Shown here in pieces: positions 3,006-63,420 of a stretch of 64,000 nucleotides of DNA. The number at the start of each line of letters is the position of its first letter. Positions within the stretch are counted from its first letter, which is position 1. The DNA lies in NCBI GenBank assembly GCA_041651055.1, contig JBAZJW010000001.1:242661-306660 (forward strand), in the 5' to 3' direction. The notes under the pieces were generated by a model. It saw nothing but the letters and a program-made list of their open reading frames with translations, ran no database searches and was not told where the DNA came from. Position numbers and translations under genes: made by a program. This stretch comes from Minisyncoccota bacterium (GTDB lineage: Bacteria; Patescibacteriota; Minisyncoccia; Phycocordibacterales; UBA5272).

Positions 3006-4097
3006 CAAGCCCTCTTCTTTTAACCCGTCAATGTGAGTTAGAGCTTTCTTCGAAAGCTTCTTCGGCATATGAATATCCAATTTCACAAGAACATCTCCTC
3101 TCTTTCCTTTTTCATGAATATACGGAACACCTCGAGAACGCACACGGAGTATTTCTCCTGTAGCTGCACCGGATGGAATGTCGATATCAATAGAACCATC
3201 GAGTCCATCAATCGTATGCTTCACACCGAGTAAGGCATCAGTGAGTTTGATACTGTGCGTAATACTCAAATCGTTTCCTTCACGCTTCCACACTTTGTGT
3301 GGTGTAACATTTATTTTTACATACAAATCCCCGGTCGTTCCACCTGAGACAGCTTCTCCCATTTGTGACATACGAATCATTTCGCCATTTGCGATTCCTG
3401 CCGGAATCGCAATATTCACTTCTTCACGAGAGTTCACAATACCGTTGCCCTTACAATCATGACACTTCTCTTCAGGAACTTTCCCTGTACCACGACATGC
3501 ATCACACGTATGTACGGTCTGGAAATTACCCATGAATGTTTTCTTCACATCATGCACTTTTCCTTGACCATTACAGGTCGTACAGGTTTTCATTTTTGTT
3601 CCAACTTTTGCCCCCGTGCCTGTACATGTCTTACATGTATTTACTTTCGATAGCAAAACGTTTCTCTCTGTACCAAAGATGGCTTCTGCAAATGGGATGT
3701 CAATTTCAAGTGAAATGTCTCGTCCGCGTTTAGGGCGTGATCCGAAACCGTTGCCTCCTTGTCCACCAAATATATCTCCGAATATATCTCCGAGATCACC
3801 AAAATCAAATTCCATACCCTGGAAGTCTGATTGATTGAATCCACCACCGAACCCTCCGAAGCCTCCCGCTTGTGGTCCTTGACCATTGAATGTCTGACCG
3901 TACGTATCGTATTCTTTTCGCTTCTTTTCGTCAGAGAGTGTTTGATAGGCTTCGTTTATTTCCTTAAACTTCGCTTCATCCCCTCCCTTTTTGTCAGGAT
4001 GATACTTGGCCGCAAGTTTATAGAACGCCTTTTTTATATCGTCTTTTGACGCCCCCTTATCTACCCCAAGCACGTTGTAATAGTCTTTAGTTGCCAT
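3003..4097 (-). CDS. dnaJ: chaperone DnaJ
   Basis: J domain with HPD, G/F-rich linker, four CxxCxGxG zinc-finger repeats. Confidence 0.95.
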
Positions 4098-6685: not shown

Positions 6686-6749
6686 ATTTTAAATAGTAAT
6701 TAGTTAGTAGTAATTCGTAATTAGTTAAATTCAAATTCAATTTCTGTGT

Positions 6750-10159: not shown

Positions 10160-10252
10160 ACAGTTATTAATAATTAGTTATTGGTGGAATCAACACAATT
10201 TAATTGCGAATTTTCCGTATTAACTAATAACTAATTACCAATAACTAATTAC
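10160..10252. promoter_or_regulatory. long inverted repeat (TAATTAGTTATTGG ... CCAATAACTAATTA, 14 bp arms) in the rpsD-rpoA intergenic region
   Basis: Arms at 10170-10183 and 10237-10250 with nested extra copies of TAATTAGTTA; would form a large hairpin in the polycistronic mRNA. Confidence 0.45.
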
Positions 10253-10260
10253 TTTATCTT

Positions 10261-12267: not shown

Positions 12268-13668
12268 TCAACGCTTTGGCAAAGATTCTACGACACGTAT
12301 CTTCGAAACCTCACTTGGAAAACGAGAAAGCCATAAAGGTGAGAAGCTTATCTCCCCTCCTTCGACAGATTCTACTGTTCTCATGAGTGGCTGGAATTCA
12401 TCACGCTTCTTTCCTGCAAGCATTTCTTTGATGGCGTCATTCGGTGTAACCCATGTGATACGTGGAGATCCGACGACGAGAACTTCGACACTCGCATCCG
12501 TCGCTACGTTCGCAGTATCTTTGATGGTATAGGTGAGCGTATCTTCATATCCTAGACGTACCGACTCACCTTTGTAATCCCGCACATCTTCCGCCAATTC
12601 TTTTGCAAAGAGTGCACTGTCTGCAAACATCAAATACCCCGTAGCAGTGACCGTATACGTAGCTGTAGCACCTTGTAAGACGTCTTGTTCGTTATCGGTG
12701 TAAACAACACTTACCGCAGAATAGAGTCCTGTATAGCCTTCCTTTTTCGTTTTTGCAAGGTCTGCTTTTACTTCTTGAGCGAGTTCAAGAGCGAATTCAT
12801 CTTTGGCAGCATTGATATCAGAAAGAGACGCCAGAGAGACATTACCTGAAGATCCTCCTGTGATAGCGCCATTTCCTCGTGCATAAAATCCCGTAAAGCG
12901 AGGTGAGCCCTTAAAGCCTGGAATAGTGAAGTCTGTTGCGGCGCTATTGTAGTCTGCTCCATAACTATCTGCATACACCGTGACTTCTATACTTCCAGGA
13001 ACATCACCTTTCATACCTGGAACAGTGATCGACTGACTGATACGGTAAATCTTTCCAGAAGCAGATTCAAAACGAGTGTTCTTAATAAGCTTCTGAGGCG
13101 CGCTGTCGAATTTGTTGTAAATAATAATTCTACCGGAAGCTTTTGCTTCTACTTTTTTGGTTTCAGAAAGTGTAAGTGTTTTTGATTTTGTAACGGACGA
13201 TGTAGCGACAACAAAAGGCACACCACTGCTTTCTCTACTGAAAACAACAGTCTTGTGCACCTCGATATCTTGATGCTTCGGAATAATTGTCGCTGTCGCT
13301 CTATCAAAAACATACGTGAGAAGTCCAGCACCGCCAGCTACGATGACAATAGTCGTAATGAATGCCCATGTTCCGAAAGAACTCTGTCGTCGTACATACT
13401 GAGTACGAGGGTCACGATATTCTACATCCGGTCGCACACGTTCACGAGGATATTCTTCTTGTTCTAGCTCTTCTCCATGCCGGCGAGGGTACATTTCCAT
13501 TTGATCTACATTTCTACGTGAACGAAAAGCTCGCGAAGGAATAACGACGGGTTCTTCTTCATACTCGTCACGAGAAGAAGCGTATGAGTTGGACTCAAAC
13601 TGAGCCACGCGTGATGGTAAGTCGCGATTAGATTTTGAACGAGTGTATGGTTTGCGAATGTCTTGCAT
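12268..13668 (-). CDS. hypothetical membrane-anchored protein (charged disordered N-terminus, one TM helix, large extracytoplasmic domain)
   Basis: TM segment WAFITTIVIVAGGAGLLTYVF; no recognisable catalytic motifs. Confidence 0.6.
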   Translation of the reverse strand: MQDIRKPYTRSKSNRDLPSRVAQFESNSYASSRDEYEEEPVVIPSRAFRSRRNVDQMEMYPRRHGEELEQEEYPRERVRPDVEYRDPRTQYVRRQSSFGTWAFITTIVIVAGGAGLLTYVFDRATATIIPKHQDIEVHKTVVFSRESSGVPFVVATSSVTKSKTLTLSETKKVEAKASGRIIIYNKFDSAPQKLIKNTRFESASGKIYRISQSITVPGMKGDVPGSIEVTVYADSYGADYNSAATDFTIPGFKGSPRFTGFYARGNGAITGGSSGNVSLASLSDINAAKDEFALELAQEVKADLAKTKKEGYTGLYSAVSVVYTDNEQDVLQGATATYTVTATGYLMFADSALFAKELAEDVRDYKGESVRLGYEDTLTYTIKDTANVATDASVEVLVVGSPRITWVTPNDAIKEMLAGKKRDEFQPLMRTVESVEGGEISFSPLWLSRFPSEVSKIRVVESLPKR

Positions 13669-14011
13669 AAGAGAGAGGAACGTTCTGTGTCCCCTCTAGT
13701 GTAACACTTACTGGTACTCCGTCTGTATAAAACTGTGCATAAGAACCGCCTTCAAGTGTTTCACCTATCCATGTCGCGTAGCGTGATGCTGTGAGATGAA
13801 AGTTTGTTGGTATGCGATCTTGTAAAGAAATAAATTCGAGCGTATAGAGAACACCATCGAGAAGTTTTGAACCTGCGATAACATTCATACCTTCTGCTTC
13901 GATATGTTTGAATCCTATTGGGTGCGTGTGCGAGACGAGAACCTTTCCGTCGACAACATAATTAACAAGCGTAGCAGAATCTCCGACAGCAATAGAGAGG
14001 TATGGGGTCAT
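13628..14011 (-). CDS. hypothetical protein with a HTHP motif (weak JAB/RadC-like resemblance); 3' end overlaps the next ORF by 40 nt
   Basis: 127-aa ORF; VSHTHPIGF motif only, no full JAMM signature. Confidence 0.45.
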   Translation of the reverse strand: MTPYLSIAVGDSATLVNYVVDGKVLVSHTHPIGFKHIEAEGMNVIAGSKLLDGVLYTLEFISLQDRIPTNFHLTASRYATWIGETLEGGSYAQFYTDGVPVSVTLEGTQNVPLSYARHSQTIHSFKI

Positions 14012-14070
14012 GAGTACAGTTTATAGTTTATAGGTGATAGTTACTAGTGGACAAATACGTATAGGCTTCT

Positions 14071-14100
14071 AAATATTCAATGAAACAATATTCAAAAAAA
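14071..14100. repeat. R2 AT-rich repeat copy (AAATATTCAATGAAACAATATTCAAAAAAA)
   Basis: Matches the AAATATTCAATAAA/ATATTCAA units at 33575, 34942, 58211, 59241, 59268. Confidence 0.55.
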
Positions 14101-24056: not shown

Positions 24057-24159
24057 AACCATTATACTCCACTTTTGTTCTACAGCACTAGGAAATGAAG
24101 TGGATAAGTCGAGAAACAGTTTATAGTTACTAGTTTTTAGTTTCTAGTAAATACCTCAA

Positions 24160-26485: not shown

Positions 26486-26573
26486 AATGAATAGTTTTTA
26501 GTTTACAGTTCTTAGTTTACAGTATACATGCGTATATACATACAATACTAACAAATCACACACTATTCGTCGA

Positions 26574-32218: not shown

Positions 32219-33499
32219 TTATTCGCAATTCTTCTGATACGTCGCGAGCAATTCTTCAATCGTAACGATTTCACTTTCTTCTTGTGTTCGTTCTTTTATT
32301 TCTACACCACCTTTTTCAAGTGACTTATCTGAAATAACCACACGCATCGGAATACCAATCAAATCACTATCGGCGAATTTACTTCCAGCCCCTTCTTCAC
32401 GATCATCAAACAAAACTTCTACATGTGCAGCCATAAGTTTCTTGTAAAGTTCTTCGGCCTTCTTCCCCGTCTCACTGTCCTTATCCTTTGCAAGAGAAAT
32501 TAAATGCACAGAGAATGGTGCGATAGCTGCAGGCCACACGAGACCTTTTTCATCGGCAAACTTTTCTGTAATCACACCCATAAGTCGCGATGGGCCAATA
32601 CCATAGCATCCCATATGTACTTCTTGCTTTTCGCCCGCTTCATTGATGTACGTATAATCAAATGCTTTTGTAAACTTAGTGCCGAGCGGGAAAATATTTC
32701 CCACTTCGCATGCTTTTACTTGTTCGAGACTTTCAAAGTCTACATTGAGACGCTTCGAGTTCTCTTCTGTCACAACTTCTTTGTTATATGCGATGTTATT
32801 TTTACGATCAAGATAAATAATGTCTTCCCCCGCATCCACTACAGTCTGAAACTCATGAGAAAATTCTTTTGTAAAGTCTCCGCCACCAGCAAGTGTAATG
32901 AATGTATCATCACCAAGACCAATCTCACGATAAATATTCATATATACTTTCTTTGCTTCTTCGTAATATGTTTTCAGATCAGCTTCATCGCGATGGAAAC
33001 TGTACAAATCTTTCATACGAAACTCACGACCACGGAGAAGTCCAGACTTAGCTCGGGCTTCATTTCGGAATTTTGTTTGTATTTGATAAAACGCAACAGG
33101 TAAGTCTTTATATGAACGAGCATAGAGTGCTGCGATAGGAGTAATCAATTCTTCATGTGTCGGATTCAAAATATATGAGTTTGAGGACTTTTCAAGAGAA
33201 ACAGCGTTTGCCGCTTCTGTCTTCATGAGTACATCGACAGTATCTAATCTTCCTGTCTTTTCCCAATTCTCACGTGGAGAGAGTGATGACATTACAAGTT
33301 CATTTCCAATAGCATCCATATGGCGACGAATAACATTTTCGATTTTTGTAAGAACACGAAGACCGAGCGGTAAAAAGGTATACACTCCCGCCATCTCCTT
33401 ATGAATAAATCCAGCACGAGTAAGGAGTATCGCGTTCTTTGACACTTCATCTTTCGGAGCTTCCTTTTGTGTTTTTGTATAGAGTTGTGATTGTCGCAT
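32219..33499 (-). CDS. proS: prolyl-tRNA synthetase (short form without INS editing domain)
   Basis: Class II catalytic motifs and a C-terminal anticodon-binding domain; 426 aa. Confidence 0.88.
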   Translation of the reverse strand: MRQSQLYTKTQKEAPKDEVSKNAILLTRAGFIHKEMAGVYTFLPLGLRVLTKIENVIRRHMDAIGNELVMSSLSPRENWEKTGRLDTVDVLMKTEAANAVSLEKSSNSYILNPTHEELITPIAALYARSYKDLPVAFYQIQTKFRNEARAKSGLLRGREFRMKDLYSFHRDEADLKTYYEEAKKVYMNIYREIGLGDDTFITLAGGGDFTKEFSHEFQTVVDAGEDIIYLDRKNNIAYNKEVVTEENSKRLNVDFESLEQVKACEVGNIFPLGTKFTKAFDYTYINEAGEKQEVHMGCYGIGPSRLMGVITEKFADEKGLVWPAAIAPFSVHLISLAKDKDSETGKKAEELYKKLMAAHVEVLFDDREEGAGSKFADSDLIGIPMRVVISDKSLEKGGVEIKERTQEESEIVTIEELLATYQKNCE

Positions 33500-33574
33500 A
33501 TTCTTAGTATACAGGAGCTAATGAGCTGTGTATAGAATATATTTATTGATGTAAATTAAATGAGAATTTAAAAA

Positions 33575-33662
33575 AAATATTCAATAAAATAATAATCAAT
33601 ATTCAATAAATACACTTCTGAATGAATCCGTTTAAATATTGAGTATTACGTTATTGAATATT
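33575..33662. repeat. R2 AT-rich repeat: inverted pair (AAATATTCAATAAAATAATAATCAATATTCAATAAA ... GTTTAAATATTGAGTATTACGTTATTGAATATT)
   Basis: 14-mer (A/C)AATATTCAATAAA appears twice at 20-nt spacing, then an inverted copy; lies between proS and rseP. Confidence 0.6.
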
Positions 33663-33670
33663 ACGTTTCC

Positions 33671-34852
33671 CTACCCTCTCACATCGTGCACCGTTACAAT
33701 CACAAGAAGAAGCATTAAAGCAAAAAATCCAACGATGTTCACCCATGAATAATACTTGTGCGGAACCTTTCTTCGTGCGATTGCTTCTATCGTCACCACA
33801 ACCATACGACCACCATCAAGTGCAGGAAGTGGAAGAATATTGAATATCGCCAAGTTAATAGACAACACTGCAATGAGCGTGAGCAATGCCTCGTAGCCAT
33901 GTTCATTTGTTTGACCAACTATTTTTGCAATACCTATCGGACCAGAAAGAGACGAAAGAACATTCTTACCTTGTGTAAGAGATGTCACAAGCGAACCAAG
34001 CCCTTCAAGAGTCATTGCTGTCATATCATAGGTGCGAATACTTCCGATTTTTATAGCATCAAAAACATTCGCATGCATGTATCCAACACGTTCCACCGAA
34101 ACACCTATCGCCTTCTTGTCTTCCACAATGCCATACACAGCAGCAATAGTCGTACTCTCAAGCTTACCGTCAGCACGTTTATAGGTAATCGTAAAAGGAT
34201 CATTGTTGTGTGCTGCAATAAATGAGATAAGCGATGTCGCATTATCCAGGTTCGCTTGAGACTTCCCTGCTGTCACTTTGACAAGAACAGACCCCGGAAC
34301 AATGCCGGCCAAGTATGCAGGAGATGTCGGAGCTGCGTCTACTACCATGAGTTCAGTATTCTTTACGCGTGCACCATATACTTCGTCACTTGCGCTCATT
34401 TGTACATTTCCATAAGAGATTCCAATGAAAACAAAAAGAGCGAGAAGCATGTTCATGGTTACACCAGCAACGAGTACGAGTAGCTGTGCCCACCATGGAC
34501 GATTACCAAAAGCACGAGGGTGATTTTTCGCAACATCATCCGGCTCACCATTTTCTCCCCAAATAGAAACATAACCTCCAAGAGGAAGTGCATTGATAGC
34601 GTAGGTTGTCTCCCCTACTTTCTTTGCGAAAATTCTCGGAGGAAAACCAAAAGCAAATTCGTCCACGCGCATATTCACCCACTTAGCAACGATAAAGTGT
34701 CCGAATTCATGCACCGCAACCAAAAGCAAAAGTATGAGAACGAAAAGCACTACGGTATTGTGACGAAACCATACGACGAGAAAAAGTGTTGACAAGAGGA
34801 AAAGAAAATCAAAACGAGTGAATAATTTTTTGATACGTGGAGATAATGACAT
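33671..34852 (-). CDS. rseP: site-2 protease RseP (M50 zinc metalloprotease)
   Basis: HEFGH zinc motif, PDZ region, LDGG motif (LPLPALDGGRMVVV). Confidence 0.9.
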   Translation of the reverse strand: MSLSPRIKKLFTRFDFLFLLSTLFLVVWFRHNTVVLFVLILLLLVAVHEFGHFIVAKWVNMRVDEFAFGFPPRIFAKKVGETTYAINALPLGGYVSIWGENGEPDDVAKNHPRAFGNRPWWAQLLVLVAGVTMNMLLALFVFIGISYGNVQMSASDEVYGARVKNTELMVVDAAPTSPAYLAGIVPGSVLVKVTAGKSQANLDNATSLISFIAAHNNDPFTITYKRADGKLESTTIAAVYGIVEDKKAIGVSVERVGYMHANVFDAIKIGSIRTYDMTAMTLEGLGSLVTSLTQGKNVLSSLSGPIGIAKIVGQTNEHGYEALLTLIAVLSINLAIFNILPLPALDGGRMVVVTIEAIARRKVPHKYYSWVNIVGFFALMLLLVIVTVHDVRG

Positions 34853-34941
34853 GGGGAAAAGTATACCATAGGAAAGTTCAAGCAGCTCGGCTACGAAGAT
34901 AACGATAAAATAGAAAAATAACTATCTACAAAACAGTTTGT

Positions 34942-34976
34942 AAATATTCAATAAAATAATATTCAATATTCAAACG
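34942..34976. repeat. R2 AT-rich repeat copy AAATATTCAATAAAATAATATTCAATATTCAAACG
   Basis: Near-identical to 33575-33610; the two copies flank rseP. Confidence 0.6.
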
Positions 34977-35102
34977 AATTAGTTGTAGTAGATATTGGGT
35001 CATGATTTTTATCAAGGTCACAATGGTCCTCAATTTGACACAGGTAAGACAGTAACGCATAATACTTTTGGATCATTAACGTTTTTTGAACTGGAGTTCA
35101 AT

Positions 35103-35615
35103 GTGACATACCAAAAAACAGGCTTTCTGAAGAGAGGGCTTTGGGGAATTATCAGCGGCATCGCTGGAGCGCTTTTCATTGGACTTGCCCTCTGGGCCGT
35201 GTTCCGTGCGAACAATGCAAACGCAGCATCAAGCGTAACCACAAACGGCTACTTTGCACAAAAAGCAGCCTTCGGACCACTGAACTGTATGCGAGTGGTA
35301 ACACCCGAAGCGGTCTATTTCATGGCATCAGCGCTCACACAAGATGCCTTGGTACTGAAAAATGTCCGAACATGTCTCGAGCGCGCCCAAAGAAGTCGCA
35401 CCAAACTGGTCGACAAAAAAGAAGGACAAATGACCGCTCGCATACACGCGAGCATCGGAGATCTTCATTGTCTTCAGACAGATATATATGTAATCGTCTT
35501 CGAAAACCGCATACATCCGAAACTCGACGCCATACTTCCTATCTGTTTCGACGCTGCCCGGGAGGGTCACGATAACGTGAGGATGAAAAGGGAATGGTTC
35601 ATGCACTGGATTTGA
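35103..35615 (+). CDS. hypothetical membrane protein (ORFan P5); GTG start chosen
   Basis: GGAG 7 nt upstream of GTG at 35103 (the ORF is open from 34995); TM helix GLWGIISGIAGALFIGLALWAVF; appears more GC-rich than neighbours by eye. Confidence 0.5.
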   Translation: MTYQKTGFLKRGLWGIISGIAGALFIGLALWAVFRANNANAASSVTTNGYFAQKAAFGPLNCMRVVTPEAVYFMASALTQDALVLKNVRTCLERAQRSRTKLVDKKEGQMTARIHASIGDLHCLQTDIYVIVFENRIHPKLDAILPICFDAAREGHDNVRMKREWFMHWI

Positions 35616-36311: not shown

Positions 36312-36360
36312 GGGGGCAGTTATTAGTAATTAGTAATTAGTTGATACATACAATTCTATA

Positions 36361-40777: not shown

Positions 40778-40825
40778 AATGGGTGAATTATAGCATAAAA
40801 AGTGGAAGTAAGGATTCCCTTAATT

Positions 40826-40945
40826 TTTAATTTTTAGTTCTTAGTTCTTAATGTAATACCAATAATTTAAAGGTCTTTTTGGAATTTTTACATAAAAATT
40901 AAAAATTTAAAACTAAAAATTAACGCTGCCTACAAGGCAGCGTTT
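40826..40945. promoter_or_regulatory. AT-rich divergent promoter region with inverted repeat TTAATTTTTAGTT / AACTAAAAATTAA and hairpin AACGCTGCC-TTGTA-GGCAGCGTT
   Basis: Inverted arms about 70 nt apart; a 9-bp GC hairpin immediately upstream of the priA-like start. Confidence 0.35.
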
Positions 40946-46455: not shown

Positions 46456-46530
46456 TCCGCGGTAGCTCAGCGGTAGAGCAGCTCGCTGTTAACGAGTTGG
46501 TCGTAGGTTCGATCCCTACCCGCGGAGCCA
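46456..46530 (+). tRNA. tRNA-Asn (anticodon GUU), CCA encoded
   Basis: Hand-folded cloverleaf: acceptor TCCGCGG/CCGCGGA, D arm GCTC-AGCGGTA-GAGC, anticodon arm GCTCG-CTGTTAA-CGAGT, variable loop TGGTC, T arm GTAGG-TTCGATC-CCTAC, discriminator G, CCA. Confidence 0.9.
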
Positions 46531-53308: not shown

Positions 53309-53941
53309 ATGAAAACAATCACAGAAGCACTTATGTGGCGCTATGCTACAAAACAATTCGATGCGACCAAAATCGTACCAGAAGAAACCATACACCAGAT
53401 CCTCGAAGCTGGACGCTTGTCCCCTTCTTCATTCGGCCTCCAACCATGGAAATTTATTCTCGTTGAAAATAAAGATCTCCGTTTGAAACTTAAAGAAGCT
53501 GCATATAATCAGCCGCAAGTAATCGATGCATCACACATGCTTGTACTCGCATACAAAAATACTGTCGATGAAGCATATATCGATACGTACATGCAATCAG
53601 TAGCAGAAGCAAGAAGTATTTCTGTTGAAGACCTTGCTGGATTTAAAGGTGCTATCATGGGGTCCATTGCTGGTAAACCTTCTGATGCCCTCGCTGTATG
53701 GAATTCACGACAAGTATACCTACCTCTTGGTATTATGCTTGAGGCAGCGGCACTGCTTGAAGTAGATGCCTGCCCGATGGAAGGATTCGATACTGCGAAG
53801 TTCAACGAGATTCTTGGATTAAATGAAATCGGCTATTCAAGTGTAGCCATGATGACTATTGGTTATCGTGCGGACACAGATACGACAGCTGGAGCAGCAA
53901 AAAGTAGATTCCCCCTTGGTGAAGTCGTAATCAGGAAATAG
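53309..53941 (+). CDS. NAD(P)H nitroreductase family protein
   Basis: Nitroreductase-fold signatures (RYATKQF, SSFGLQPW); 210 aa. Confidence 0.85.
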   Translation: MKTITEALMWRYATKQFDATKIVPEETIHQILEAGRLSPSSFGLQPWKFILVENKDLRLKLKEAAYNQPQVIDASHMLVLAYKNTVDEAYIDTYMQSVAEARSISVEDLAGFKGAIMGSIAGKPSDALAVWNSRQVYLPLGIMLEAAALLEVDACPMEGFDTAKFNEILGLNEIGYSSVAMMTIGYRADTDTTAGAAKSRFPLGEVVIRK

Positions 53942-53978
53942 GTTTTAGTTTATAGGTTACAGGTTTTAGAAAATATGA

Positions 53979-54960: not shown

Positions 54961-55119
54961 GAAAACACCTCTGTATCTATCGAATATTTTAAGATGAAAA
55001 CATTGAATATTCTACAAAATGTGTTATCATGCATACATCGCCCAATCGGGCACTTTATTTTGGCATCTCCAGTGTTGCATTGCTCTTAGCTGTAAACTGT
55101 AGACTGTCTACTATCTATT

Positions 55120-56623: not shown

Positions 56624-57118
56624 TCACTGCATTATTGATTTCTGTTTTACTTGAAATATGTCCACGCGGTAATACTCAGTACTATCTTTCCCTATAGAAG
56701 GGCAAAACGTAAAAAGATCACCATGACTATTGTAGATCTGAACAAGAAAAGCGAAATAACAGACCGCAAGAAGTATCACATCAGCATCCGTTAGTATTTC
56801 CCCTTTCTCTTTAAGGGTTCTAATCTTGGCAAGGAAAAGTGGTGGGGCAAGTCCAAGATCCATATCCATGGAACCAAAGGATTTACTTCTAACAGCTTGC
56901 ATAGCAAGAGGTCTACTAAAAAAGAACTCCTGATCTTGATTCATACCAAAGATGTAGACACCTGCATTGGAGAGGTCAAGATAATTTTCAAAAAGATCGA
57001 AGGCAAAATCCAGTATGGAAAAATCTGAATTATCCTCGTCGATCTCTTCCAAAAAAGCCTTTATCTCCTCTCTGAATTCGAGAACGCTTTTTGATAACGG
57101 AATGCTAAGCTTGGTCAT
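56624..57118 (-). CDS. hypothetical acidic protein
   Basis: 164-aa ORF, no motif recognised. Confidence 0.5.
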   Translation of the reverse strand: MTKLSIPLSKSVLEFREEIKAFLEEIDEDNSDFSILDFAFDLFENYLDLSNAGVYIFGMNQDQEFFFSRPLAMQAVRSKSFGSMDMDLGLAPPLFLAKIRTLKEKGEILTDADVILLAVCYFAFLVQIYNSHGDLFTFCPSIGKDSTEYYRVDIFQVKQKSIMQ

Positions 57119-57217
57119 GCTGAACTCCTTGTATTTGGGGTTTCTGAACTGCTTTCCTCTCTAAGGCTACCTAATTAAAGACATGTGCGCAACTTGTGTA
57201 CATTATTGTAGGTATGT

Positions 57218-57226
57218 GGTATAATA
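57218..57226 (+). promoter_or_regulatory. extended -10 promoter element TGGTATAAT about 90 nt upstream of the RRM protein gene
   Basis: TGnTATAAT consensus match; would give a long 5'UTR containing duplicated TGTAGGTATGTG. Confidence 0.4.
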
Positions 57227-57316
57227 GCAGATAAGTAAGCAACTCCACGTTTCTACGGTTTCTACACTTGTAGGTATGTGCTCAGGGCTTATGGTTAATA
57301 ATTAGTTTCTACATAA

Positions 57317-57598
57317 ATGAATTCAAAACTATACATTGGTGGTATTCCTTACACTTCTACTAACGAAGATCTAAAAGCTCACTTCAGTGGCGCTGGAACA
57401 GTTGTTTCAGCTCAGATCATCATCGACAAGATGACTAACCGTTCAAAGGGCTTCGGCTTTGTTGAAATGTCATCTGACGCAGAAGCTGAGAAGGCTATTG
57501 CTATGTTCCACGATCAAGAGTTCCAGGGTCGTCGTCTAACGGTAAACGTTGCACGTCCACTCGCTCCTCGCGAAGATCGTCCACGTCGCGCATTCTAA
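57317..57598 (+). CDS. RRM-domain RNA-binding protein
   Basis: RNP-2 (KLYIGGIPY) and RNP-1 (KGFGFVEM) motifs, Arg-rich C-tail. Confidence 0.9.
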   Translation: MNSKLYIGGIPYTSTNEDLKAHFSGAGTVVSAQIIIDKMTNRSKGFGFVEMSSDAEAEKAIAMFHDQEFQGRRLTVNVARPLAPREDRPRRAF

Positions 57599-57615
57599 TT
57601 TCGATTAGAATCACG

Positions 57616-57649
57616 AAAACAAAATCGCCCGAAAGGGCGATTTTGTTTT
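57616..57649. terminator. terminator AAAACAAAATCGCCC-GAAA-GGGCGATTTTGTTTT
   Basis: 15-bp stem, bidirectional. Confidence 0.8.
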
Positions 57650-57663
57650 GTGCGCTCAACCTC

Positions 57664-58470
57664 CTATTTTTTTTCACAGACAAGAAAGTACTCCTGATTC
57701 CCGTCCCCTCCTTGAATATGACACAGGAAAATCTGCACGGACGTCATTCCTTTTTCTTTCGCCAATATTTTGTAGTCATCGAGTATACCATTGACTAATT
57801 GCTCATCTTTCACAATTCCTTTCTTGGTATTCCCTTTTCCGACTTCAAACTGTGGCTTAATAAGTAAAAAATACAAAGCCCCCTTTGCGCCAAACCTCAC
57901 GATATCATCAAAGACATGTGTAAGAGGAATGAACGAAAGGTCGGCGACAATTATTTCATACGGTGTACTATTTTTGAAATTACGAATATCTGTATTCTCA
58001 AATACTGACACACGTGCATCATTTCTTATTTTCTCGTGCAACTGAAGTGTTCCCACATCAACAGCATCCACATGTGACACACCGTATGAGAGCAAGCAAT
58101 CTGTAAACCCTCCCGTAGAAGACCCTACATCAAGAGCAGTCTTCCCTTCCAACATTTCTCGTATTTTGCCTTCGTTTTTATTATCTAGATTTTCTGAATT
58201 TGCATTCTCATTAAATATTGAATGTTCATTTATTGAATATTTCTTTTCGGCATCCTTGATGTCAAAAAGCACTCCCTCCAACTTCTCCCCTCCTCTTGAA
58301 ACAAATTTCCTTCGCGCAGTAACCTCAATCACATCAATCTCAGCAACTTGTTTTGTCTGCTTTGTAGCAATAGAACCATTCACAAGGACGTTCCCGCTTT
58401 CAATAATTCCTTGTGCTTCAGTTCTACTTTCGCAAAGCCCCCTCTTTACCAACTCTTGATCTAATCGCAT
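57664..58470 (-). CDS. tlyA: TlyA-family rRNA 2'-O-methyltransferase (S4 domain plus FtsJ fold) carrying an in-frame insertion from an R2 repeat
   Basis: S4-like N-terminus, SRGGEKL, LDVGSSTGGFT. Between KLEGV and LDVG there is a ~25-aa insert (KKYSINEHSIFNENANSENLDNKNEG) encoded by the R2 repeat at 58211-58249. Confidence 0.8.
   Translation of the reverse strand: MRLDQELVKRGLCESRTEAQGIIESGNVLVNGSIATKQTKQVAEIDVIEVTARRKFVSRGGEKLEGVLFDIKDAEKKYSINEHSIFNENANSENLDNKNEGKIREMLEGKTALDVGSSTGGFTDCLLSYGVSHVDAVDVGTLQLHEKIRNDARVSVFENTDIRNFKNSTPYEIIVADLSFIPLTHVFDDIVRFGAKGALYFLLIKPQFEVGKGNTKKGIVKDEQLVNGILDDYKILAKEKGMTSVQIFLCHIQGGDGNQEYFLVCEKK
58211..58249. repeat. R2 AT-rich repeat copy inside the tlyA coding sequence
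   Basis: TTAAATATTGAATGTTCATTTATTGAATATTTCTTTTCG is about 36/39 identical to 59271-59309. Confidence 0.65.
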
Positions 58471-58517
58471 GCTTTAAATATTTACATCTTTAAATATGGG
58501 TATAGTTTCCTTGGAAA

Positions 58518-59213
58518 CTATACCCCCGCCCACCCTTTCACCGTGAGTGCCTTCTTGGCCGCAGATGTCTCTGCTTCCTGCTTACTCCTCCCTTCCCCTT
58601 CTGCGATTAATTCTTCTGCAAAATAAATACCAACCTTAAAAAGTTTGTCATGGTCTGGACCTTCTTCGTTGATCACACTGTATGATGGTGTCGTGTTGTA
58701 CAACTCCTGAGCTTTCTCCTGTACAAAACTCTTTGCATCCTTATATAATCCTTTCTTAATAATTTCTGCAGTCTTACCGAGAAGTGAACGTGTGACAAAG
58801 CCTTTTGTACTCTCATACCCCTGGTCGAGATAGAGCGCTCCGATGAATGCTTCGTATGCATCAGCCAAAATAGATGAACGTGCCCGTGTGATATCTTTTG
58901 CTTCTCCTTTTGAGAGCTTCATCATGTCATTAAAATGTAATCCACCAGCCACCTCGCCGAGCGTCACAGCGTTCACTAGCGCCGAACGATACGCCGTCAA
59001 ATCCCCTTCATTGTGATGTGGGTACGTCGCATAGAGATATTCTGTGACGATAAGCTCGAGCACCGCATCGCCCAAAAATTCGAGACGCTCATTGTGCTCA
59101 AATCCATTACGTGGATTTTCATTGATGAAGCTACGGTGAATAAACGCCTGCGCGAGCAAGTCGTTATTCTTAAACTGTACACCGGTATTGTGTTGAAACT
59201 GTTCGAGGGTCAT
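58518..59213 (-). CDS. rnc: ribonuclease III
   Basis: ERLEFLGDAVLELIVTEYLY catalytic signature, C-terminal dsRBD. Confidence 0.93.
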   Translation of the reverse strand: MTLEQFQHNTGVQFKNNDLLAQAFIHRSFINENPRNGFEHNERLEFLGDAVLELIVTEYLYATYPHHNEGDLTAYRSALVNAVTLGEVAGGLHFNDMMKLSKGEAKDITRARSSILADAYEAFIGALYLDQGYESTKGFVTRSLLGKTAEIIKKGLYKDAKSFVQEKAQELYNTTPSYSVINEEGPDHDKLFKVGIYFAEELIAEGEGRSKQEAETSAAKKALTVKGWAGV

Positions 59214-59240
59214 GTGTTTTTATATAAATAATCAATGTAA

Positions 59241-59309
59241 CAATATTCAATAAAAGGCTTTGTATTTTGTTTAAATATTGAATATTGATTTATTGAATAT
59301 TTTCTTTCG
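59241..59309. repeat. R2 AT-rich repeat copies (CAATATTCAATAAAAGG and GTTTAAATATTGAATATTGATTTATTGAATATTTTCTTTCG); the latter supplies the stop codon of the NusB-NUDIX gene
   Basis: The last codons KENIQ-stop of the 59290 ORF are the reverse complement of TTATTGAATATTTTCTTT. Confidence 0.65.
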
Positions 59310-60201
59310 CCTTCTCAAGAGCCTTTTCTACAAGAGGTTTGATGTCATCATACATGCGAAGGTCGAGCACCTCTTTCGCCTCGAACCACTTCGCATCGTC
59401 TAGGCCACCTTTGTTTTCTTTGTGTTCAAGGGTAAGCGGCAAATACTCAGCAGACGCCAAGTAATAACTCACATGCTTTACGATTTTACCCTGCTCTGGT
59501 TTGTTGGCAATGTATTCGTTCTCACCAAGCTTATCCAAAATGGTGACAGCAATGCCGATCTCTTCTTGTATTTCTCGTGCCGCTCCCTGCTGCTCATTTT
59601 CACCAGCTTCTATTTTTCCTTTTGGAAGTGTCCAGTAGCCGAAGACGTCGTGCACAAGTCCGATGTGAAGTTTATTGTCATGACGACTACATACGACAGC
59701 ACCTGCGAGAAGTTCACGCTTGCTCGTTTCGAAATGCTCCTTTTTACTTTTGGTGACCTGGCCTTTTTCTGGCTCACCCATTTCTTTGTAAATAGCCCCA
59801 AGCACGCCGTTGATAAACCTGCCGGATGTCTCACCTCCGAATGACTTGGCAAGTTCGATGGCTTCATCGATAGCTACCTTTGGTGGCACTTGTGCACGAT
59901 CACCGAACAAAAGCTCCGTGAGACCGATGCGAAGAATATTTCTGTCTACCATGCCGATTTTATCAAGTGGCCAGTCAGGTGCAGCACGAGTAATGATGTC
60001 ATCTAATGTGATGCGACGAGAAAGAGCGTTCACGACAATGTCTTTCGCAAAGGAAACGTCTTTGATCCCCTCACCGAATTCATCACGGTTACGCTCGAGT
60101 ATAGGCAAGAACACATCCATAGGAACACTCAAATCACCTTTCATGTCTAGTTCGAAAAGTGTTTGAAGTGCGAGTGTTCGTGCTATGTGCCGGGTACTCA
60201 T
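59290..60201 (-). CDS. nusB: NusB antitermination factor fused to a C-terminal NUDIX hydrolase domain
   Basis: NusB core (VAIDEAIELAKSFGGETSGRFINGVLGAI) in residues 1-140; canonical Nudix box GKIEAGENEQQGAAREIQEEIGI in the C-terminal half. Confidence 0.8.
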   Translation of the reverse strand: MSTRHIARTLALQTLFELDMKGDLSVPMDVFLPILERNRDEFGEGIKDVSFAKDIVVNALSRRITLDDIITRAAPDWPLDKIGMVDRNILRIGLTELLFGDRAQVPPKVAIDEAIELAKSFGGETSGRFINGVLGAIYKEMGEPEKGQVTKSKKEHFETSKRELLAGAVVCSRHDNKLHIGLVHDVFGYWTLPKGKIEAGENEQQGAAREIQEEIGIAVTILDKLGENEYIANKPEQGKIVKHVSYYLASAEYLPLTLEHKENKGGLDDAKWFEAKEVLDLRMYDDIKPLVEKALEKAKENIQ

Positions 60202-60240
60202 AGGGTTGTAAAGGAGCTGGTTGAGGAGAATTAGGAGAAG

Positions 60241-60444
60241 CTATGCTTTCGCGGCGCTTTTTGTGACTTTTGCCTTTACGTTAATAACTTTTTTGCCACG
60301 ATAATAACCACATGCATCACAGATGTGATGAGGGGCCTTCATAGCGCCACAGTTCTTGCAGGCAACGATATTAGCTGCTTTCAAGGCGTGGTGTGAGCGA
60401 CGGTTTGCCGTATGCGCTCGTGTGTGTCTCATTCGTACTACCAT
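60241..60444 (-). CDS. rpmF: 50S ribosomal protein L32 (zinc-ribbon form)
   Basis: RRSHHALK N-motif and CKNCG...CDACG zinc ribbon. Confidence 0.8.
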   Translation of the reverse strand: MVVRMRHTRAHTANRRSHHALKAANIVACKNCGAMKAPHHICDACGYYRGKKVINVKAKVTKSAAKA

Positions 60445-60512
60445 AGTTGTTATATTCTACAGTATTTTCTATCATCTTGCAAATGAAGTGTTGATAACCA
60501 TAATAATGACCA

Positions 60513-61276
60513 ACAAGGCGAGGCCTTGTAGCTACAAGGCCTCGCCTTGTTGGTGGCCAATCATAAGCCAAGAAAGAATACTTTCTGTAAAATGTTTAGG
60601 ACTTTCAAAATATATAGGAAACTGAGATGGAGATATAACTGAATTTTCCGAACGTACAATTCCACAATAATCATGAAAACTAGAGTACGGATATTGCCTT
60701 ACAAAATCAATCACCTCTTTTCTTTTACTGATTATTTTTTCTTTCCACAAAGGGTCAACCAGCTTCGCAGGGTTTAGATGTATATACGCATACAAATAAC
60801 GCATATATCTATCATTTCCAGCATGTTGAGATTTAAATGGGCCCTCAAATAATGCTCCCGTTCTTTTATACTTTTTATTAAAATACATTACATATGCAGT
60901 GCATACCTTTTGCATAAATAAAGTGACACCTTCCTCTTCTATCTGTTTAGCTAAAATATGAAAATGATTATCCATGAGTGCATAGGCACCGATGGCCACC
61001 AACGGAGAGTCCTTCTTTGAAAAAGCAAGATCAAGAGACGAAGCGTCTACACGAGAGCGGGGCACTTGATTTAAAAGGCCCAATAATTTTACAAACCGTC
61101 TCCTATCCTGATCATCTTTAAAGATAATTTGTTTACTGTTCCCTCGATTATATACGTGATAATACTCATTTACCGCCAAAACGACACTTCTTTTTGACAT
61201 AGTAAAAGTATATACCCAATACAAGGCGAGGCCTTGTAGTTTTCCCCCTTCCCTAACTACAAGGCCTCGCCTTGTA
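60513..61276. mobile_element. IS200/IS605-type or REP-associated (RAYT) Y1 transposase unit flanked by near-identical palindromic hairpins
   Basis: Left hairpin ACAAGGCGAGGCCTTGTAG/CTACAAGGCCTCGCCTTGT (60513-60550). Right hairpin has the same arms around a 15-nt loop (61221-61276). Confidence 0.75.
60532..61200 (-). CDS. Y1 (HuH) transposase, IS200-like / RAYT family
   Basis: HuH motif HFHIL, catalytic Tyr context YAYIHLNPAK. Start trimmed to MSKRSVVL; the C-terminus runs into the left hairpin, whose centre is the TAG stop. Confidence 0.75.
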   Translation of the reverse strand: MSKRSVVLAVNEYYHVYNRGNSKQIIFKDDQDRRRFVKLLGLLNQVPRSRVDASSLDLAFSKKDSPLVAIGAYALMDNHFHILAKQIEEEGVTLFMQKVCTAYVMYFNKKYKRTGALFEGPFKSQHAGNDRYMRYLYAYIHLNPAKLVDPLWKEKIISKRKEVIDFVRQYPYSSFHDYCGIVRSENSVISPSQFPIYFESPKHFTESILSWLMIGHQQGEAL

Positions 61277-61290
61277 AGATTCCTTTCTCT

Positions 61291-63420
61291 TTACTTCCCT
61301 CCCAGCTTATATAGAGAGTAGATTTCTGAAGCAGAGAGCGAGCGATTATATACTCGGACATCATCGAGAGACCCTGTCATTTTTCCTCTTATTCCACAAC
61401 CAGGATCTGCTCCAACTGACAGATTTTCTAAACTGTTCCAAGCAACACCTGTGGCACTTGTTGTGGTACTAAGATTACCGTTTATATACAAAGAAAGGGT
61501 CGAACCATTATATGTCCCTGCAACGTGTGTCCATTTATTGATTATAGCGTTTGAATCTGAAGAAATTCTCTTGTTTGCAGTTGTGTTACTAGTACCGAAC
61601 CCAAAAGAATATTTGTTAGGATATTCAGCACTTTCAGTACCACCTATTGATAGGTAATAACTTGCATACGTAGAACAACCAAGTCCGTGGTACATAAAAT
61701 TCTGATAAGTCGTTGTTGATGTATACACCCAAGCAGAAAGTGTCATAGGTCCACCAGTAAGACGAAGAGCTGCGCTATTTCCTGCAGTGAAATAATCATT
61801 CACCCCATCAAACCGAAGCCCCTGCCCGATCTTCCCTATAGCAACCGTTGGCCCATTCGTAAGTGTTCCATTATTTCCATTCCCACTTACATCTGTCGCG
61901 GTGGCGCTTGTCATATTCTTGCCATCAAATGTCCACCAACCGACGAGACCGGAGGTGAGGGTGAAGGTGGGAGAAACGTTAAGGCTACCAGCTTGAGATT
62001 TGTAGAGGGCGTAGATCTCTGTGGAGGAGAGTGCTCGGTTGTAGATGCGAAAATCATCTATCTTTCCATTTATATAACCATTATATCCATTTCCTATCCA
62101 CGTATAGGTTCCCGCGTCTGTACCAATAGAACCAACATAAGAGCCATCAGGAACTGAGTTTTTATATGCCCGCCAAGTCGTACCGTCGTAAGTAAGCACC
62201 ATATGATACCAAAGATTATCACTTACATTTTCTGTTATTGGATAACTATGATTCAGAAACCAATCAACTTGTGTTGGACTTGTTCTCTTCAATAAAATCC
62301 AAGGTGAAGTATCTGAAAGACTTCCAGCAATTTGCATTATTCCTTTTGTTGATTGTGCCCCTCTAAGATTCATCCAAAAAGAAATTGAAAGGGTGCTCCC
62401 TATAGCTGTTTTGTTAAGATTGCTTTTTACGTAATCGTCCACTCCGTCGAAATCCAAAGCTTGACCAATTTTACCAATAACTGCAGTTGTACCATTTGTA
62501 CGTGTCCCGTGATATCCACTACCACTCATATCCGTCGCGGTGGCGCTTGTCATATTCTTGCCATCAAATGTCCACCAACCGACGAGGCCAGAGGTGAGTG
62601 TGAAAGTGGGAGAAACGTTAAGGCTACCAGCTTGAGATTTGTAGAGAGTATAAATTTCTTGGGCAGAAAGTACGCGATTATATATACGAACATCGTCAAG
62701 AGTTCCGTCAAAGGGTCGTAGATTATCCCCTCGGTTACCGATTGTCATTCTCACTACACCTGCACCAGCATAGCCAGCTGCAGCAGACATTGTTTGAGGT
62801 ACACCATTAAGATAGACGCTTGAAAGCGTGGTTGTTCCGTCCCAAGTAACAACAGCGTGGTACCAAGTATTCAATTTATTCACACTATTATTAGGAATTT
62901 TTCTATACGATGTAACCCCTCCAATGACAATAGTTACTATAATTGAATTTTCGTCGGCGTTGCCAGTTTGAGGTATTCCAATAGCCCAATAATTTGATTG
63001 ATTAGCCGTAGAAGACTCTTCAAGCAAACGTGGTAAATTCGTTGTTAAAGAGTTACGTTTAAACCAAAATGACACAGTTTTAACATTACTCCCAGCAAAA
63101 CTACTGGCATCGGGCACAGAAACATAATCATTCGAACCGTCAAAATAAAGACCTTGTCCAATCTTCCCTTTTGTGACCAATGGCCCATTCGTACGTGTTC
63201 CATTATTTCCATTCCCACTCACATCTGTCGCGGTAGCATTCGTCATGTTCTTCCCATCAAATGTCCACCAACCAACAAGGCCGTTTGTAAGATTTTGACC
63301 GGCGGTATTTGTGGTGACCAACGCCCCCGCTTGTTGTGTATGAACAAATACCAGACATGCGAATACAACGCCGAATATCAGTACTTTATATTTTGTGAGT
63401 ATGATTTTAAGTTTGTTCAT
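61291..63420 (-). CDS. secreted protein with three tandem LamG / concanavalin-A-like lectin domain repeats
   Basis: Signal peptide; triplicated ~210-aa unit (LTSGLVGWWTFDGKNMT.ATATD.SGNGNNGT..NG...IGKIGQ.L.FDG..DY); adjacent units are nearly identical at the DNA level. Confidence 0.8.
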   Translation of the reverse strand: MNKLKIILTKYKVLIFGVVFACLVFVHTQQAGALVTTNTAGQNLTNGLVGWWTFDGKNMTNATATDVSGNGNNGTRTNGPLVTKGKIGQGLYFDGSNDYVSVPDASSFAGSNVKTVSFWFKRNSLTTNLPRLLEESSTANQSNYWAIGIPQTGNADENSIIVTIVIGGVTSYRKIPNNSVNKLNTWYHAVVTWDGTTTLSSVYLNGVPQTMSAAAGYAGAGVVRMTIGNRGDNLRPFDGTLDDVRIYNRVLSAQEIYTLYKSQAGSLNVSPTFTLTSGLVGWWTFDGKNMTSATATDMSGSGYHGTRTNGTTAVIGKIGQALDFDGVDDYVKSNLNKTAIGSTLSISFWMNLRGAQSTKGIMQIAGSLSDTSPWILLKRTSPTQVDWFLNHSYPITENVSDNLWYHMVLTYDGTTWRAYKNSVPDGSYVGSIGTDAGTYTWIGNGYNGYINGKIDDFRIYNRALSSTEIYALYKSQAGSLNVSPTFTLTSGLVGWWTFDGKNMTSATATDVSGNGNNGTLTNGPTVAIGKIGQGLRFDGVNDYFTAGNSAALRLTGGPMTLSAWVYTSTTTYQNFMYHGLGCSTYASYYLSIGGTESAEYPNKYSFGFGTSNTTANKRISSDSNAIINKWTHVAGTYNGSTLSLYINGNLSTTTSATGVAWNSLENLSVGADPGCGIRGKMTGSLDDVRVYNRSLSASEIYSLYKLGGK

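Follow-up and report, generated by a model that had tools for sequence, protein, structure and literature searches.

A tlyA gene within a 64,000-nucleotide stretch of genome sequence from a Candidatus Paceibacterota bacterium (below, "the window" means this whole 64-kb stretch) carries 25 additional codons, and the larger part of them derives from an AT-rich repeat that is otherwise a feature of intergenic DNA. The source lineage belongs to the Candidate Phyla Radiation (CPR; Patescibacteria), ultra-small bacteria with reduced genomes. The extra codons fall between helix αA and strand β1 of the encoded methyltransferase, and, across the clade, intergenic-type sequence has repeatedly accumulated in this αA-β1 loop. 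The explanation that we favor, and consider reasonably probable, is that the insert arose when one arm of an intergenic element was duplicated in frame by template switching or ectopic conversion, and that the peptide it encodes is a tolerated passenger.

Repeat-derived insert in the tlyA gene

TlyA family enzymes catalyze 2′-O-methylation of C1409 in 16S ribosomal RNA (rRNA) and of C1920 in 23S rRNA. The gene found in the window and the parts of its insert are located as follows:

57664 to 58470, minus strand: tlyA, 268 amino acids (aa), with an N-terminal S4 domain and an FtsJ-like 2′-O-methyltransferase domain (open reading frame and Pfam)
58171 to 58245, minus strand: in-frame insert of 75 nt, 25 codons, residues 76 to 100 (KKYSINEHSIFNENANSENLDNKNE), relative to the canonical 22-aa segment
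58199 to 58254, minus strand: repeat-derived tract of the insert, 56 nt, 82% identical without gaps to 59259–59314 (repeat family D4)
58217 to 58241, minus strand: repeat unit core within tlyA, AATATTCAAT-AAATG-AACATTCAAT, matching the half-site consensus at 19 of 20 positions
58171 to 58198, minus strand: distal part of the insert, N/E/D-rich and of low complexity, with a roughly xxxAAT hexamer periodicity

TlyA was compared with its 120 closest homologues. The insert is located between helix αA, which bears the invariant lysine K63, and strand β1, which bears the S-adenosylmethionine (SAM) motif GSSTGG. The distance from KLEG to D-x-GSSTGG is 47 aa, compared to exactly 22 aa in about 100 of the 120 homologues, a net gain of 25 aa; Mycobacterium tuberculosis TlyA has 6 residues in the region where the protein from the window has 38. 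An earlier note on this DNA, made from the sequence alone, had proposed about 25 extra residues in a loop that is short in other TlyA proteins, with the reading frame preserved and the translation KKYSINEHSIFNENANSENL, and all of this was borne out. The 39-nt string at 58211–58249 on which that note was based is present as described. Its similarity to 59271–59309 is real, at 35 of 39 positions (89.7% rather than 92%), and the treatment of the whole insert as repeat needs to be narrowed: about 56 of the 75 nt are repeat-derived, the remainder being the low-complexity sequence at 58171–58198, for which no blast match with E < 0.1 was found elsewhere in the window.

The match between the insert and the spacer is far above the background. 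With blastn-short, the insert core aligned to the spacer over 32 nt with 93.75% identity (E = 3e-8 for a search of the 64 kb). Aligned without gaps to all other parts of the window, the insert reached a best score of 26, compared to 12.8 ± 1.0 (maximum 16) for 200 dinucleotide shuffles. When the coding DNA was divided into 370 tiles of 75 nt, the insert ranked at the top with a score of 27 (mean of 12.3, standard deviation of 1.4). Since the three coding tiles with an AT content of at least 70% scored no more than 13, the top score of the insert is not explained by AT-richness. The 12-mer AATATTGAATAT, with at most one mismatch allowed, occurs 10 times in the window, with 0.77 occurrences expected.

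The repeat unit can be written as AATATTCAAT-N5-AATATTCAAT, that is, two half-sites exactly 15 nt apart, followed by a conserved 3′ extension, ATTCAAACAAAATAC. The copied arm spans about 45 to 56 nt and has the consensus AAATATTCAAT-GAAAC-AATATTCAAT-ATTCAAACAAAATAC. The core 8-mer AATATTCA is the commonest 8-mer in the 8.6 kb of intergenic DNA of the window, where it occurs 12 times; the coding DNA, about 55 kb, has it 7 times, so that it is enriched 10.7-fold between genes. Seven full and two degenerate units were found in the window. The full units start at 14072(+), 33576(+), 33638(−), 34943(+), 58217(−), 59227(+), and 59277(−), in agreement with the earlier note's family of at least seven copies, and a check of their positions against the open reading frames (ORFs) of the window showed that every one of them except the tlyA copy is intergenic or overlaps a stop codon. 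The units outside tlyA are the following:

14072 to 14096, plus strand: solo unit AATATTCAATGAAACAATATTCAAA, intergenic, 60 nt upstream of the minus-strand ORF 13628–14011
27860: degenerate unit
33576 to 33600, plus strand, and 33638 to 33662, minus strand: inverted unit pair in the spacer of the M50 peptidase and class II tRNA synthetase genes (inverted repeat I9)
34943 to 34967, plus strand: solo intergenic unit in the spacer from which the M50 gene and ORF 34995–35615 diverge
54979 to 55011, minus strand: degenerate unit in the DHH/ABC-F divergent spacer
59227 to 59251, plus strand: inverted partner arm that ends 13 nt before the rnc start codon and pairs with 59277–59301 (inverted repeat I17)
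59259 to 59314, minus strand: closest copy and probable donor, covering the 3′ end of nusB-NUDIX and the left arm of the nusB/rnc spacer hairpin

The unit core 59277–59301 on the minus strand contains the stop codon of nusB (59290–59292). Two of the three sense frames of the unit contain stops (AAT ATT CAA TAA, which is the nusB stop, and AAA TGA), and tlyA uses the only open frame. Repeat and unit scans revealed no partner arm for the solo unit inside tlyA, and no significant local RNA fold was predicted for the insert region (z = +0.7).

The family was also compared with known elements. A metagenome pattern scan with AATATTCAATNNNNNAANANTCAA returned 120 scattered matches, nearly all of them single chance matches in unrelated contigs. 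No Rfam 15 family matched at the units: a tRNA at 46456–46527 was the only match in the window to reach the gathering score, and E-value scans of 57000–60500 and 33400–35100 returned nothing at the units. A promoter reading was rejected. The sequence TTGACA-18-AATATT overlaps the tlyA copy, but eight promoter-like sites were counted compared to 5.9 in shuffles, and, by inspection, the other units lack a consistent −35/−10 arrangement. CodY and Fur boxes, iterons, uptake sequences, tandem interspersed guide RNA (TIGR) arrays, and targeting by diversity-generating retroelements were dropped because the unit consists of direct half-sites 15 nt apart in dispersed copies, an anatomy that none of these classes fits, and because no other observation suggested them.

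The protein with the insert retains the hallmarks of the family. It is 100% identical to an NCBI protein annotated as TlyA family RNA methyltransferase of a Candidatus Paceibacterota bacterium; the next-nearest TlyA in the protein database is 70% identical. Both domains were recognized by Pfam (S4, E = 1.6e-11; FtsJ, E = 7.9e-28), and comparison with M. tuberculosis TlyA by phmmer gave E = 4e-35. An AlphaFold model built on 120 sequences had a mean predicted local distance difference test (pLDDT) score of 92.7, with high confidence except in the insert loop, and was matched by Foldseek to solved TlyA structures (7s0s_B, M. tuberculosis TlyA, TM score of 0.77; 3hp7, E = 7.8e-21). Among the 120 homologues, GSSTGG (residues 116 to 121), K63, D177, and K205 are invariant and E260 is nearly so; K63, D177, K205, and E260 are presumably the catalytic tetrad of the RrmJ type, as in RrmJ and TlyA studies. 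With all motif residues kept and a modeled fold that matches solved TlyA, the gene looks functional. In the model, the insert region comprises a helix (residues 59 to 79), a loop (80 to 91, pLDDT of about 61), and a second helix (92 to 107) that precedes strand β1; the insert is therefore predicted to lengthen a solvent-exposed helical hairpin between helix αA and SAM motif I. The earlier description of tlyA as an essential-type gene was overstated, since a Bacillus subtilis tlyA deletion strain is viable, though cold-sensitive (PMC12805891).

Genome-specific inserts at the same point in relatives

Extra residues at exactly the same point were found in 17 of the 120 TlyA proteins, the one from the window included, and thus in at least 16 relatives. 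For eight relatives (L081/L082 to L089), DNA could be compared with the window (3 to 21 kb per relative), and all eight keep the gene order L32-nusB-rnc-tlyA. In five of the eight, the insert matches intergenic repeats of the same genome, which may be AT-rich units, heptamer arrays, or GC palindromes.

The insert of L081 consists of half-units AATTTTCAA around a GC hairpin and is 94% identical over 34 nt to positions 116–149 of L081 itself. The L083 insert, AATTTTTAATTTCTAATTTTAAATTTTTAA, is 93% identical over 30 nt to the spacer after rnc of its own genome. In L085, the insert is made of the heptamers GCAGTGG/GCAGTAA, which are also present at the 3′ end of its own nusB; in L088, it is a near-perfect GC palindrome with a second copy in the tlyA/RRM (RNA recognition motif) spacer of the same genome; and in L089, TAATTTTCAATTTTCAAA matches the spacer upstream of the RRM gene at 18 of 18 positions. 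No own-genome match was found for the inserts of L084 and L087, for which the contigs are only 8.9 and 3.4 kb long.

The own-genome match exceeded all 200 shuffles in the window, L081, L083, L088, and L089, and 199 of 200 in L085. When each insert was scored against every genome, the own genome gave the best score in the window (48 compared to at most 26 for the others), in L088 (36 compared to 20), in L083 (44 compared to 42), and, narrowly, in L085 (26 compared to 20), while in L081 the own genome tied with L089 (44 each).

The eighth relative, L086 (TlyA homologue P0003), has an intact AATATTCAAT-GAAAC-AATATTCAAT unit at the same codon junction as the window. CGAAAAGAAATATTCAAT is identical at 18 of 18 positions in the two genomes, and the unit is about 85% identical over 46 nt by direct count, while the two tlyA genes are 68% identical overall. 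The proposal that the insert is lineage-specific, for which an alignment of orthologs had been suggested, needs correcting. The insert is absent from most relatives; it is not private to the genome of the window, the same unit being present in L086. A pattern scan of a genome collection for TlyA yielded, among the matches listed, mostly distant sequences (Actinomycetota and others) and no close relatives.

Identities of Rnc and NusB-NUDIX define L081, L083, L084, L085, L086, and L087 as a tight clade (81 to 100%), to which the window is about 68 to 76% identical in these proteins. Within this clade, the insert ranges from the intact unit (L086) through heptamers (L085) to a sequence in which no unit can be recognized (L087). 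L081 and L083 have 100% identical Rnc and NusB proteins, and yet their tlyA inserts differ by a 21-nt indel comprising the GC hairpin, by a 9-nt indel, and by many substitutions. Counted from mismatch positions, identity between the two tlyA genes (L081, 3665–4459; L083, 10001–10783) falls from about 97% ahead of the insert to about 83% behind it, third codon positions accounting for most of the differences; this suggests a recombination breakpoint at the insert. Judging by these alignments, the insert loop is changing far faster than the rest of tlyA. A rough neighbor-joining tree groups the TlyA proteins of the clade with homologues P0004, P0016, P0018, and P0013, in which the segment is 45, 33, 23, and 22 aa long, respectively.

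Origin of the insert and alternative explanations

The junctions of several inserts carry inverted duplications. In L089, a 19-nt perfect inverted duplication (2157–2175 compared to 2194–2212) of the adjacent coding DNA for KLAGAFF is located at the start of the insert and encodes the peptide KKGTSEQ, the first part of the TlyA insert of this genome. By its anatomy, this duplication would be a clear signature of template switching (snap-back). At the 5′ edge of the insert, a 7-bp stem GATGTCG...CGACATC is present in L081 and L083, and the corresponding stem in L084 is GATACTG...CAGTATC: three pairs have changed on both sides with complementarity kept. These coding hairpins are located at the following approximate positions:

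L081, about 3869 to 3889: 5′-edge coding hairpin
L083, about 10205 to 10225: 5′-edge coding hairpin
L084, about 5245 to 5265: 5′-edge coding hairpin

The flanks point to a particular donor. The 5′ flank CGAAA(A)GAAA is found only in tlyA copies (window and L086) and in nusB-end copies (window, L081, and L083). A derived spacer, AAAT[G/C], and the 3′ flank ATATTTAA are further features common to the tlyA and nusB-end copies of the window. By direct reading, the 3′ extension of the unit, CAAAATAC, resembles the tlyA sequence that follows the insert, GGCAAAATACGAG, a likeness that is suggestive only. We therefore infer that tlyA most probably received its copy from the nusB-end arm, which lies 1 kb upstream in the same operon and in the same orientation; about 55 nt of this arm would have been transferred through a template switch guided by microhomology or through a short conversion tract. 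Short purine-rich homologies at the junctions, GAAA(A)GAAA at the 5′ side and AAAATAC at the 3′ side (GAAGAAAAAATAC-like), may have aided the copying. The copy would have survived by falling in the one stop-free frame of the unit and in a solvent-exposed helical connection, and the loop would afterward have kept exchanging sequence with nearby repeats. Because the frame is open, the loop is exposed and serves as a recurrent sink, and the turnover is fast, the peptide is most likely a tolerated passenger rather than a designed feature.

Several points weigh against this explanation or leave room for others. The copying mechanism is drawn from junction anatomy alone, and the donor assignment depends on flanks that are short and of low complexity. 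The neighbor-joining tree of 120 TlyA cores is star-like, so that one ancient gain followed by losses and several separate gains are inseparable. The repeat census covers 64 kb of a 775-kb genome. For the function of the intergenic hairpins (next section), covariation in the cassette stem is uninformative, almost all pairs being invariant. Last, although the two genes are only 68% identical, the window and L086 both keep a near-intact unit at this junction, for which selection on DNA or RNA could account as well as repeated conversion could.

Such selection would make the insert a nucleic-acid element within coding sequence, either an RNase III-type switch formed with the rnc-proximal arm or a protein-binding site, and to this we assign a low probability. 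Besides the unit shared with L086, it would account for the resemblance of the tlyA inserts of the window and of L085 to the left arm of their own nusB/rnc spacers though the repeat words differ. Escherichia coli rnc is autoregulated via a leader hairpin, and some inverted repeat lies just upstream of rnc in all eight relatives; the duplex predicted between the tlyA copy and the rnc-proximal arm reaches −17.1 to −18.7 kcal/mol, compared to −19.0 kcal/mol for the local hairpin. However, the same arm pairs at −17.4 kcal/mol with another segment of tlyA, which puts the duplex only about two standard deviations from the mean, and any sequence similar to the left arm will be complementary to the right arm, so that this pairing is not independent evidence. 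Within the tight clade, the insert sequence is unconserved and sometimes lost, and neither the local structure of the insert region nor the number of promoter-like sites departs from expectation in a way that would indicate a selected element. The more specific proposal that the αA-β1 loop is a maintained site of a cis-acting element, with an in-frame copy of the leader arm pairing with the rnc arm in an RNase III-type switch that brackets rnc, appears quite improbable. If true, a regulatory RNA element would be written into a protein loop and would co-evolve with the repeat "dialect" of each species, which would account for the way in which the loop follows the spacer sequence among genomes whose repeat words are unrelated. 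Transposition of an element resembling miniature inverted-repeat transposable elements, known as MITEs, or repetitive extragenic palindromes (REPs), possibly mobilized by a Y1/HUH enzyme and preferring this target in tlyA, is in our estimation unlikely. It agrees with the dispersed multicopy family, with inverted pairs that resemble terminal inverted repeats 75 to 87 nt apart, with the scatter of insert-bearing TlyA proteins among insert-less relatives in the neighbor-joining tree, and with an IS200/Y1-like ORF bordered by GC palindromes 2 kb away. The palindrome of the L088 loop, in frame and with its second copy in an intergenic spacer, and the GC hairpin of the L081 loop, involved in the 21-nt indel relative to L083, are also in its favor, and for these GC palindromes transposition is possible. 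The tlyA copy of the window, in contrast, is a single arm without a partner. Cassettes occupy orthologous sites (nusB/rnc and the ABC-F leader) in genomes only about 70% identical in these proteins, an arrangement that accords with long-lived cis elements rather than recent hops, and the Y1_Tnp match, at 22.9 bits compared to the Pfam cut-off of 23, is tied to the GC palindromes and not to the AT-rich unit. No shared duplicated flank was seen on inspection of the sequences that border the copies, though no search aimed at target-site duplications was made. Since the junctions carry inverted duplications of host coding DNA, which are not a product of transposition, together with flanks shared with the probable donor, we favor template switching or ectopic conversion. 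Of the earlier wording, "mobile or duplicative element," the second half is retained: the insert duplicates a dispersed AT-rich repeat of intergenic DNA, and no sign of transposition was found.

The peptide itself could be the selected product, with the repeat serving as raw material and the helical hairpin aiding docking to the CPR ribosome or binding of a partner. The location between catalytic helix αA and SAM motif I, the persistence of 8- to 39-aa inserts at this point in many lineages, and a modeled segment that is an ordered helix-loop-helix rather than fully disordered are all compatible with an adaptive extension. Yet even genomes that are nearly identical differ greatly in the length and sequence of the insert, no insert is present in about 85% of the relatives examined, some of them within the insert-bearing clade, the tip of the loop has low model confidence (pLDDT of about 61), and the composition of the peptide mirrors the translation of local repeats; an adaptive extension is thus improbable. 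A native AT-rich, low-complexity loop that merely happens to resemble an AT-rich spacer has the slightest probability of all the explanations considered. The region is indeed AT-rich, and the simple N/E/D-rich sequence at 58171–58198 is unmatched elsewhere, but the insert beats all dinucleotide shuffles and tops the coding tiles, it shares the exact 15-nt spacing of half-sites and both flanks with the nusB-end copy, and the same result was obtained in five other genomes with differing repeat words, GC-rich palindromes included. Coincidence was therefore rejected, being contradicted by both the shuffle and the cross-genome tests.

Hairpin cassettes, neighboring features, and comparison with known systems

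The paired units form predicted hairpins. The pair in the nusB/rnc spacer folds into an AU-rich hairpin (ΔG = −18 kcal/mol, z = −3.6), and the pair at 33555–33680 (minus strand) into an AU-rich hairpin of about 45 bp (ΔG = −33.9 kcal/mol, z = −6.9) followed by U8, a structure that resembles an intrinsic terminator whose AU-rich stem is unusually long. As in terminator elements, the paired units form a stem-loop between co-directional genes with a U-rich tract after it; a consensus terminator scan, which is GC-based, made no call at the AU-rich stems. Leader cassettes built in this way were located at the following positions:

Window, 59216 to 59312: leader cassette
L081, 2752 to 2857: leader cassette
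L081, 3566 to 3664: leader cassette
L083, 8643 to 8746: leader cassette
L085, 12812 to 12908: leader cassette
L088, 1022 to 1121: leader cassette

In the relatives, they occupy the orthologous nusB/rnc spacer (L081 and L083) and the leaders of tlyA (L081) and of ABC-F (L085, a full inverted pair); the inverted repeat before tlyA in L088 is cassette-like as read from the spacer and failed the unit scan. In five cassettes, the geometry is the same, with the forward arm 63 to 72 nt and the end of the reverse arm 8 to 13 nt before the ATG of rnc, tlyA, or ABC-F, genes that have no obvious Shine-Dalgarno sequence. The 3′ arm of paired copies is typically trailed by a U/A-rich tract, and six cassettes from four genomes share a 22-pair consensus stem. 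By inspection of the spacers, the inverted repeats found upstream of rnc in the eight relatives are composed of species-specific words. From this arrangement, we infer that the paired cassette may be an RNA hairpin that acts as a terminator or attenuator or as an element of mRNA processing or stability. The rnc leader cassette is a candidate element of RNase III autoregulation or a candidate terminator.

The operon on the minus strand consists of L32, a nusB-NUDIX fusion (59290–60201), rnc (58518–59213), and tlyA (57664–58470), beyond which a convergent RRM gene and then an ABC-F gene are located. The 303-aa product of nusB-NUDIX combines NusB with a C-terminal NUDIX hydrolase domain. The fusion was called in seven of the eight relatives, and the L088 contig holds only the 3′ end of the gene. 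The repeat unit encodes the last residues of NusB-NUDIX and its stop (...EKAKENIQ*) in the window, L081, and L083, and the C terminus differs in relatives with a different spacer repeat. Between the convergent tlyA and RRM genes lies a bidirectional terminator hairpin, AAAACAAAATCGCCCGAAAGGGCGATTTTGTTTT, at 57616–57650, which gives a spurious sub-threshold sraL match in Rfam; the tlyA/RRM spacers of L081, L083, L084, L085, L087, and L089 also have a hairpin bordered by A- and T-runs.

The ORF with the weak IS200/Y1 transposase match (60532–61224, minus strand, 230 aa) is bordered by perfect GC palindromes at 60509–60554 and 61220–61276 (ACCAACAAGGCGAGGCCTTGTAG/... and TACAAGGCGAGGCCTTGTAGTT/...), one of which overlaps the 3′ end of the ORF, an arrangement reminiscent of REPs with a REP-associated tyrosine transposase (RAYT). 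The palindrome found in frame in the L088 TlyA loop shares the CTACAAGG...CCTTG ends. Farther on, at 61291–63420 (minus strand), tandem DNA repeats of 639 to 693 nt (family D1, 61 to 78% identity) encode a 709-aa protein that has three Laminin_G_3/concanavalin-like domains. Other families of intergenic words in the window have a periodicity of 7 to 8 nt: TAGTTTA/CAGTTTA arrays (14015–14055, 24115–24155, 26490–26530, 40821–40846, and 53937–53977) and AGTTATT/AGTAATT arrays (6695–6728, 10162–10253, and 36318–36342). The word ACTAATTA occurs eight times in intergenic and never in coding DNA of the window. The heptamers of the relatives differ, with GCAGTAA in L085 and TTTAAATN in L083, L084, and L086. 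Small 23S_rRNA_IVP (Pfam) genes, one of them also weakly similar to bAvd, and PemK, RelB/YafQ, and HigB genes occupy varying spacers of the L32-nusB-rnc-tlyA region of relatives, which is in other respects syntenic (L083, 6758–7267, 11492–11845, and 9530–9916; L084, 3702–4058; L081, 222–1126). Because these IVP and toxin-antitoxin genes sit in them, the repeat-holding spacers evidently also take gene-sized insertions.

Quasipalindrome, or template-switch, mutagenesis of the kind described by Ripley is classically known from small corrections of imperfect palindromes in mutation assays. The features in common with it are the inverted duplications at the junctions (19 nt in L089; 7-bp stems in L081, L083, and L084), apparent copying from a nearby ectopic template, and short homologies; in contrast, the inferred product here is an in-frame addition of 50 to 75 nt fixed in natural lineages. 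The uptake sequences of Pasteurellaceae (USS) and Neisseriaceae (DUS) are 9- to 12-mers that occur about once per kb, also within ORFs. They are analogous only in being genome-specific "dialect" motifs that form inverted pairs behind genes and have weakly constrained positions in ORFs. The unit described here has two half-sites and about seven copies in 64 kb, and nothing ties it to DNA uptake. REPs accompanied by a Y1 transposase of the RAYT type also differ, since the tlyA insert of the window is AT-rich and non-palindromic; GC palindromes of the REP type occupy the TlyA loop in L088 and L081 and not in the window.

In-frame insertion of intergenic repeats is known from Rickettsia palindromic elements (RPEs) and, less often, from BOX, RUP, ERIC, and Bordetella repeats (PMC10969869 and PMC3184786). 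In REP, BOX, RUP, ERIC, and the Bordetella repeat BRE, as reviewed in PMC3184786, repeats fused to ORFs or inserted in them have a likeness here in the nusB-NUDIX stop codon that lies inside a unit. Those repeats are GC-rich palindromes or MITEs with terminal inverted repeats, and the AT-rich unit alone has neither feature; no evidence was found that it is mobile. RPEs, according to Ogata et al. (2000) as reviewed in the same two sources (PMC10969869 and PMC3184786), are palindromic elements of about 100 to 150 bp that encode a conserved peptide and are located in frame within protein genes. They are the closest analogue: in both cases, a stop-free repeat of noncoding type lies in frame in a conserved housekeeping gene of a reduced genome, at a site compatible with the fold, and orthologues differ in carrying it. 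As in RPE- and MITE-type elements, the tlyA copy belongs to a dispersed family, is stop-free and in frame at a permissive site, and is absent from many orthologues. It lacks a palindrome or terminal inverted repeats, the length of 100 to 150 bp, and a conserved peptide; it is a 45- to 56-nt non-palindromic single arm accompanied by simple sequence, and the peptides differ between lineages. Two further differences from RPEs are that repeats peculiar to each genome have overwritten the tlyA loop again and again and that the junctions are suggestive of template switching from spacers close by rather than of element insertion. In the literature searched, we came across no case of an in-frame insert derived from a repeat in TlyA or in any CPR protein, an absence limited to that literature, and we found no account there of the repeated rewriting of one loop with genome-specific repeats, or of spacers of the same operon as likely donors.

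Overall, by analogy, the tlyA case is a small-scale counterpart of the "selfish DNA inside genes" of Rickettsia. In CPR bacteria of the Paceibacterota, intergenic repeat sequence enters coding DNA, and one permissive loop of a ribosome-modifying enzyme has been rewritten repeatedly. The inserts of the relatives provide a natural series in which the gain of protein segments from noncoding DNA, the tolerance of loops, and the underlying errors of replication and recombination can be followed. For annotation and phylogenetics of CPR, they serve as a warning that lineage-specific insertions may be derived from repeats, may evolve at a much higher rate than the gene around them, and may be signs of recombination breakpoints. 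The intergenic family, with its fixed place before start codons that lack an obvious Shine-Dalgarno sequence, is a candidate regulatory or terminator element in a phylum whose expression signals are poorly known.

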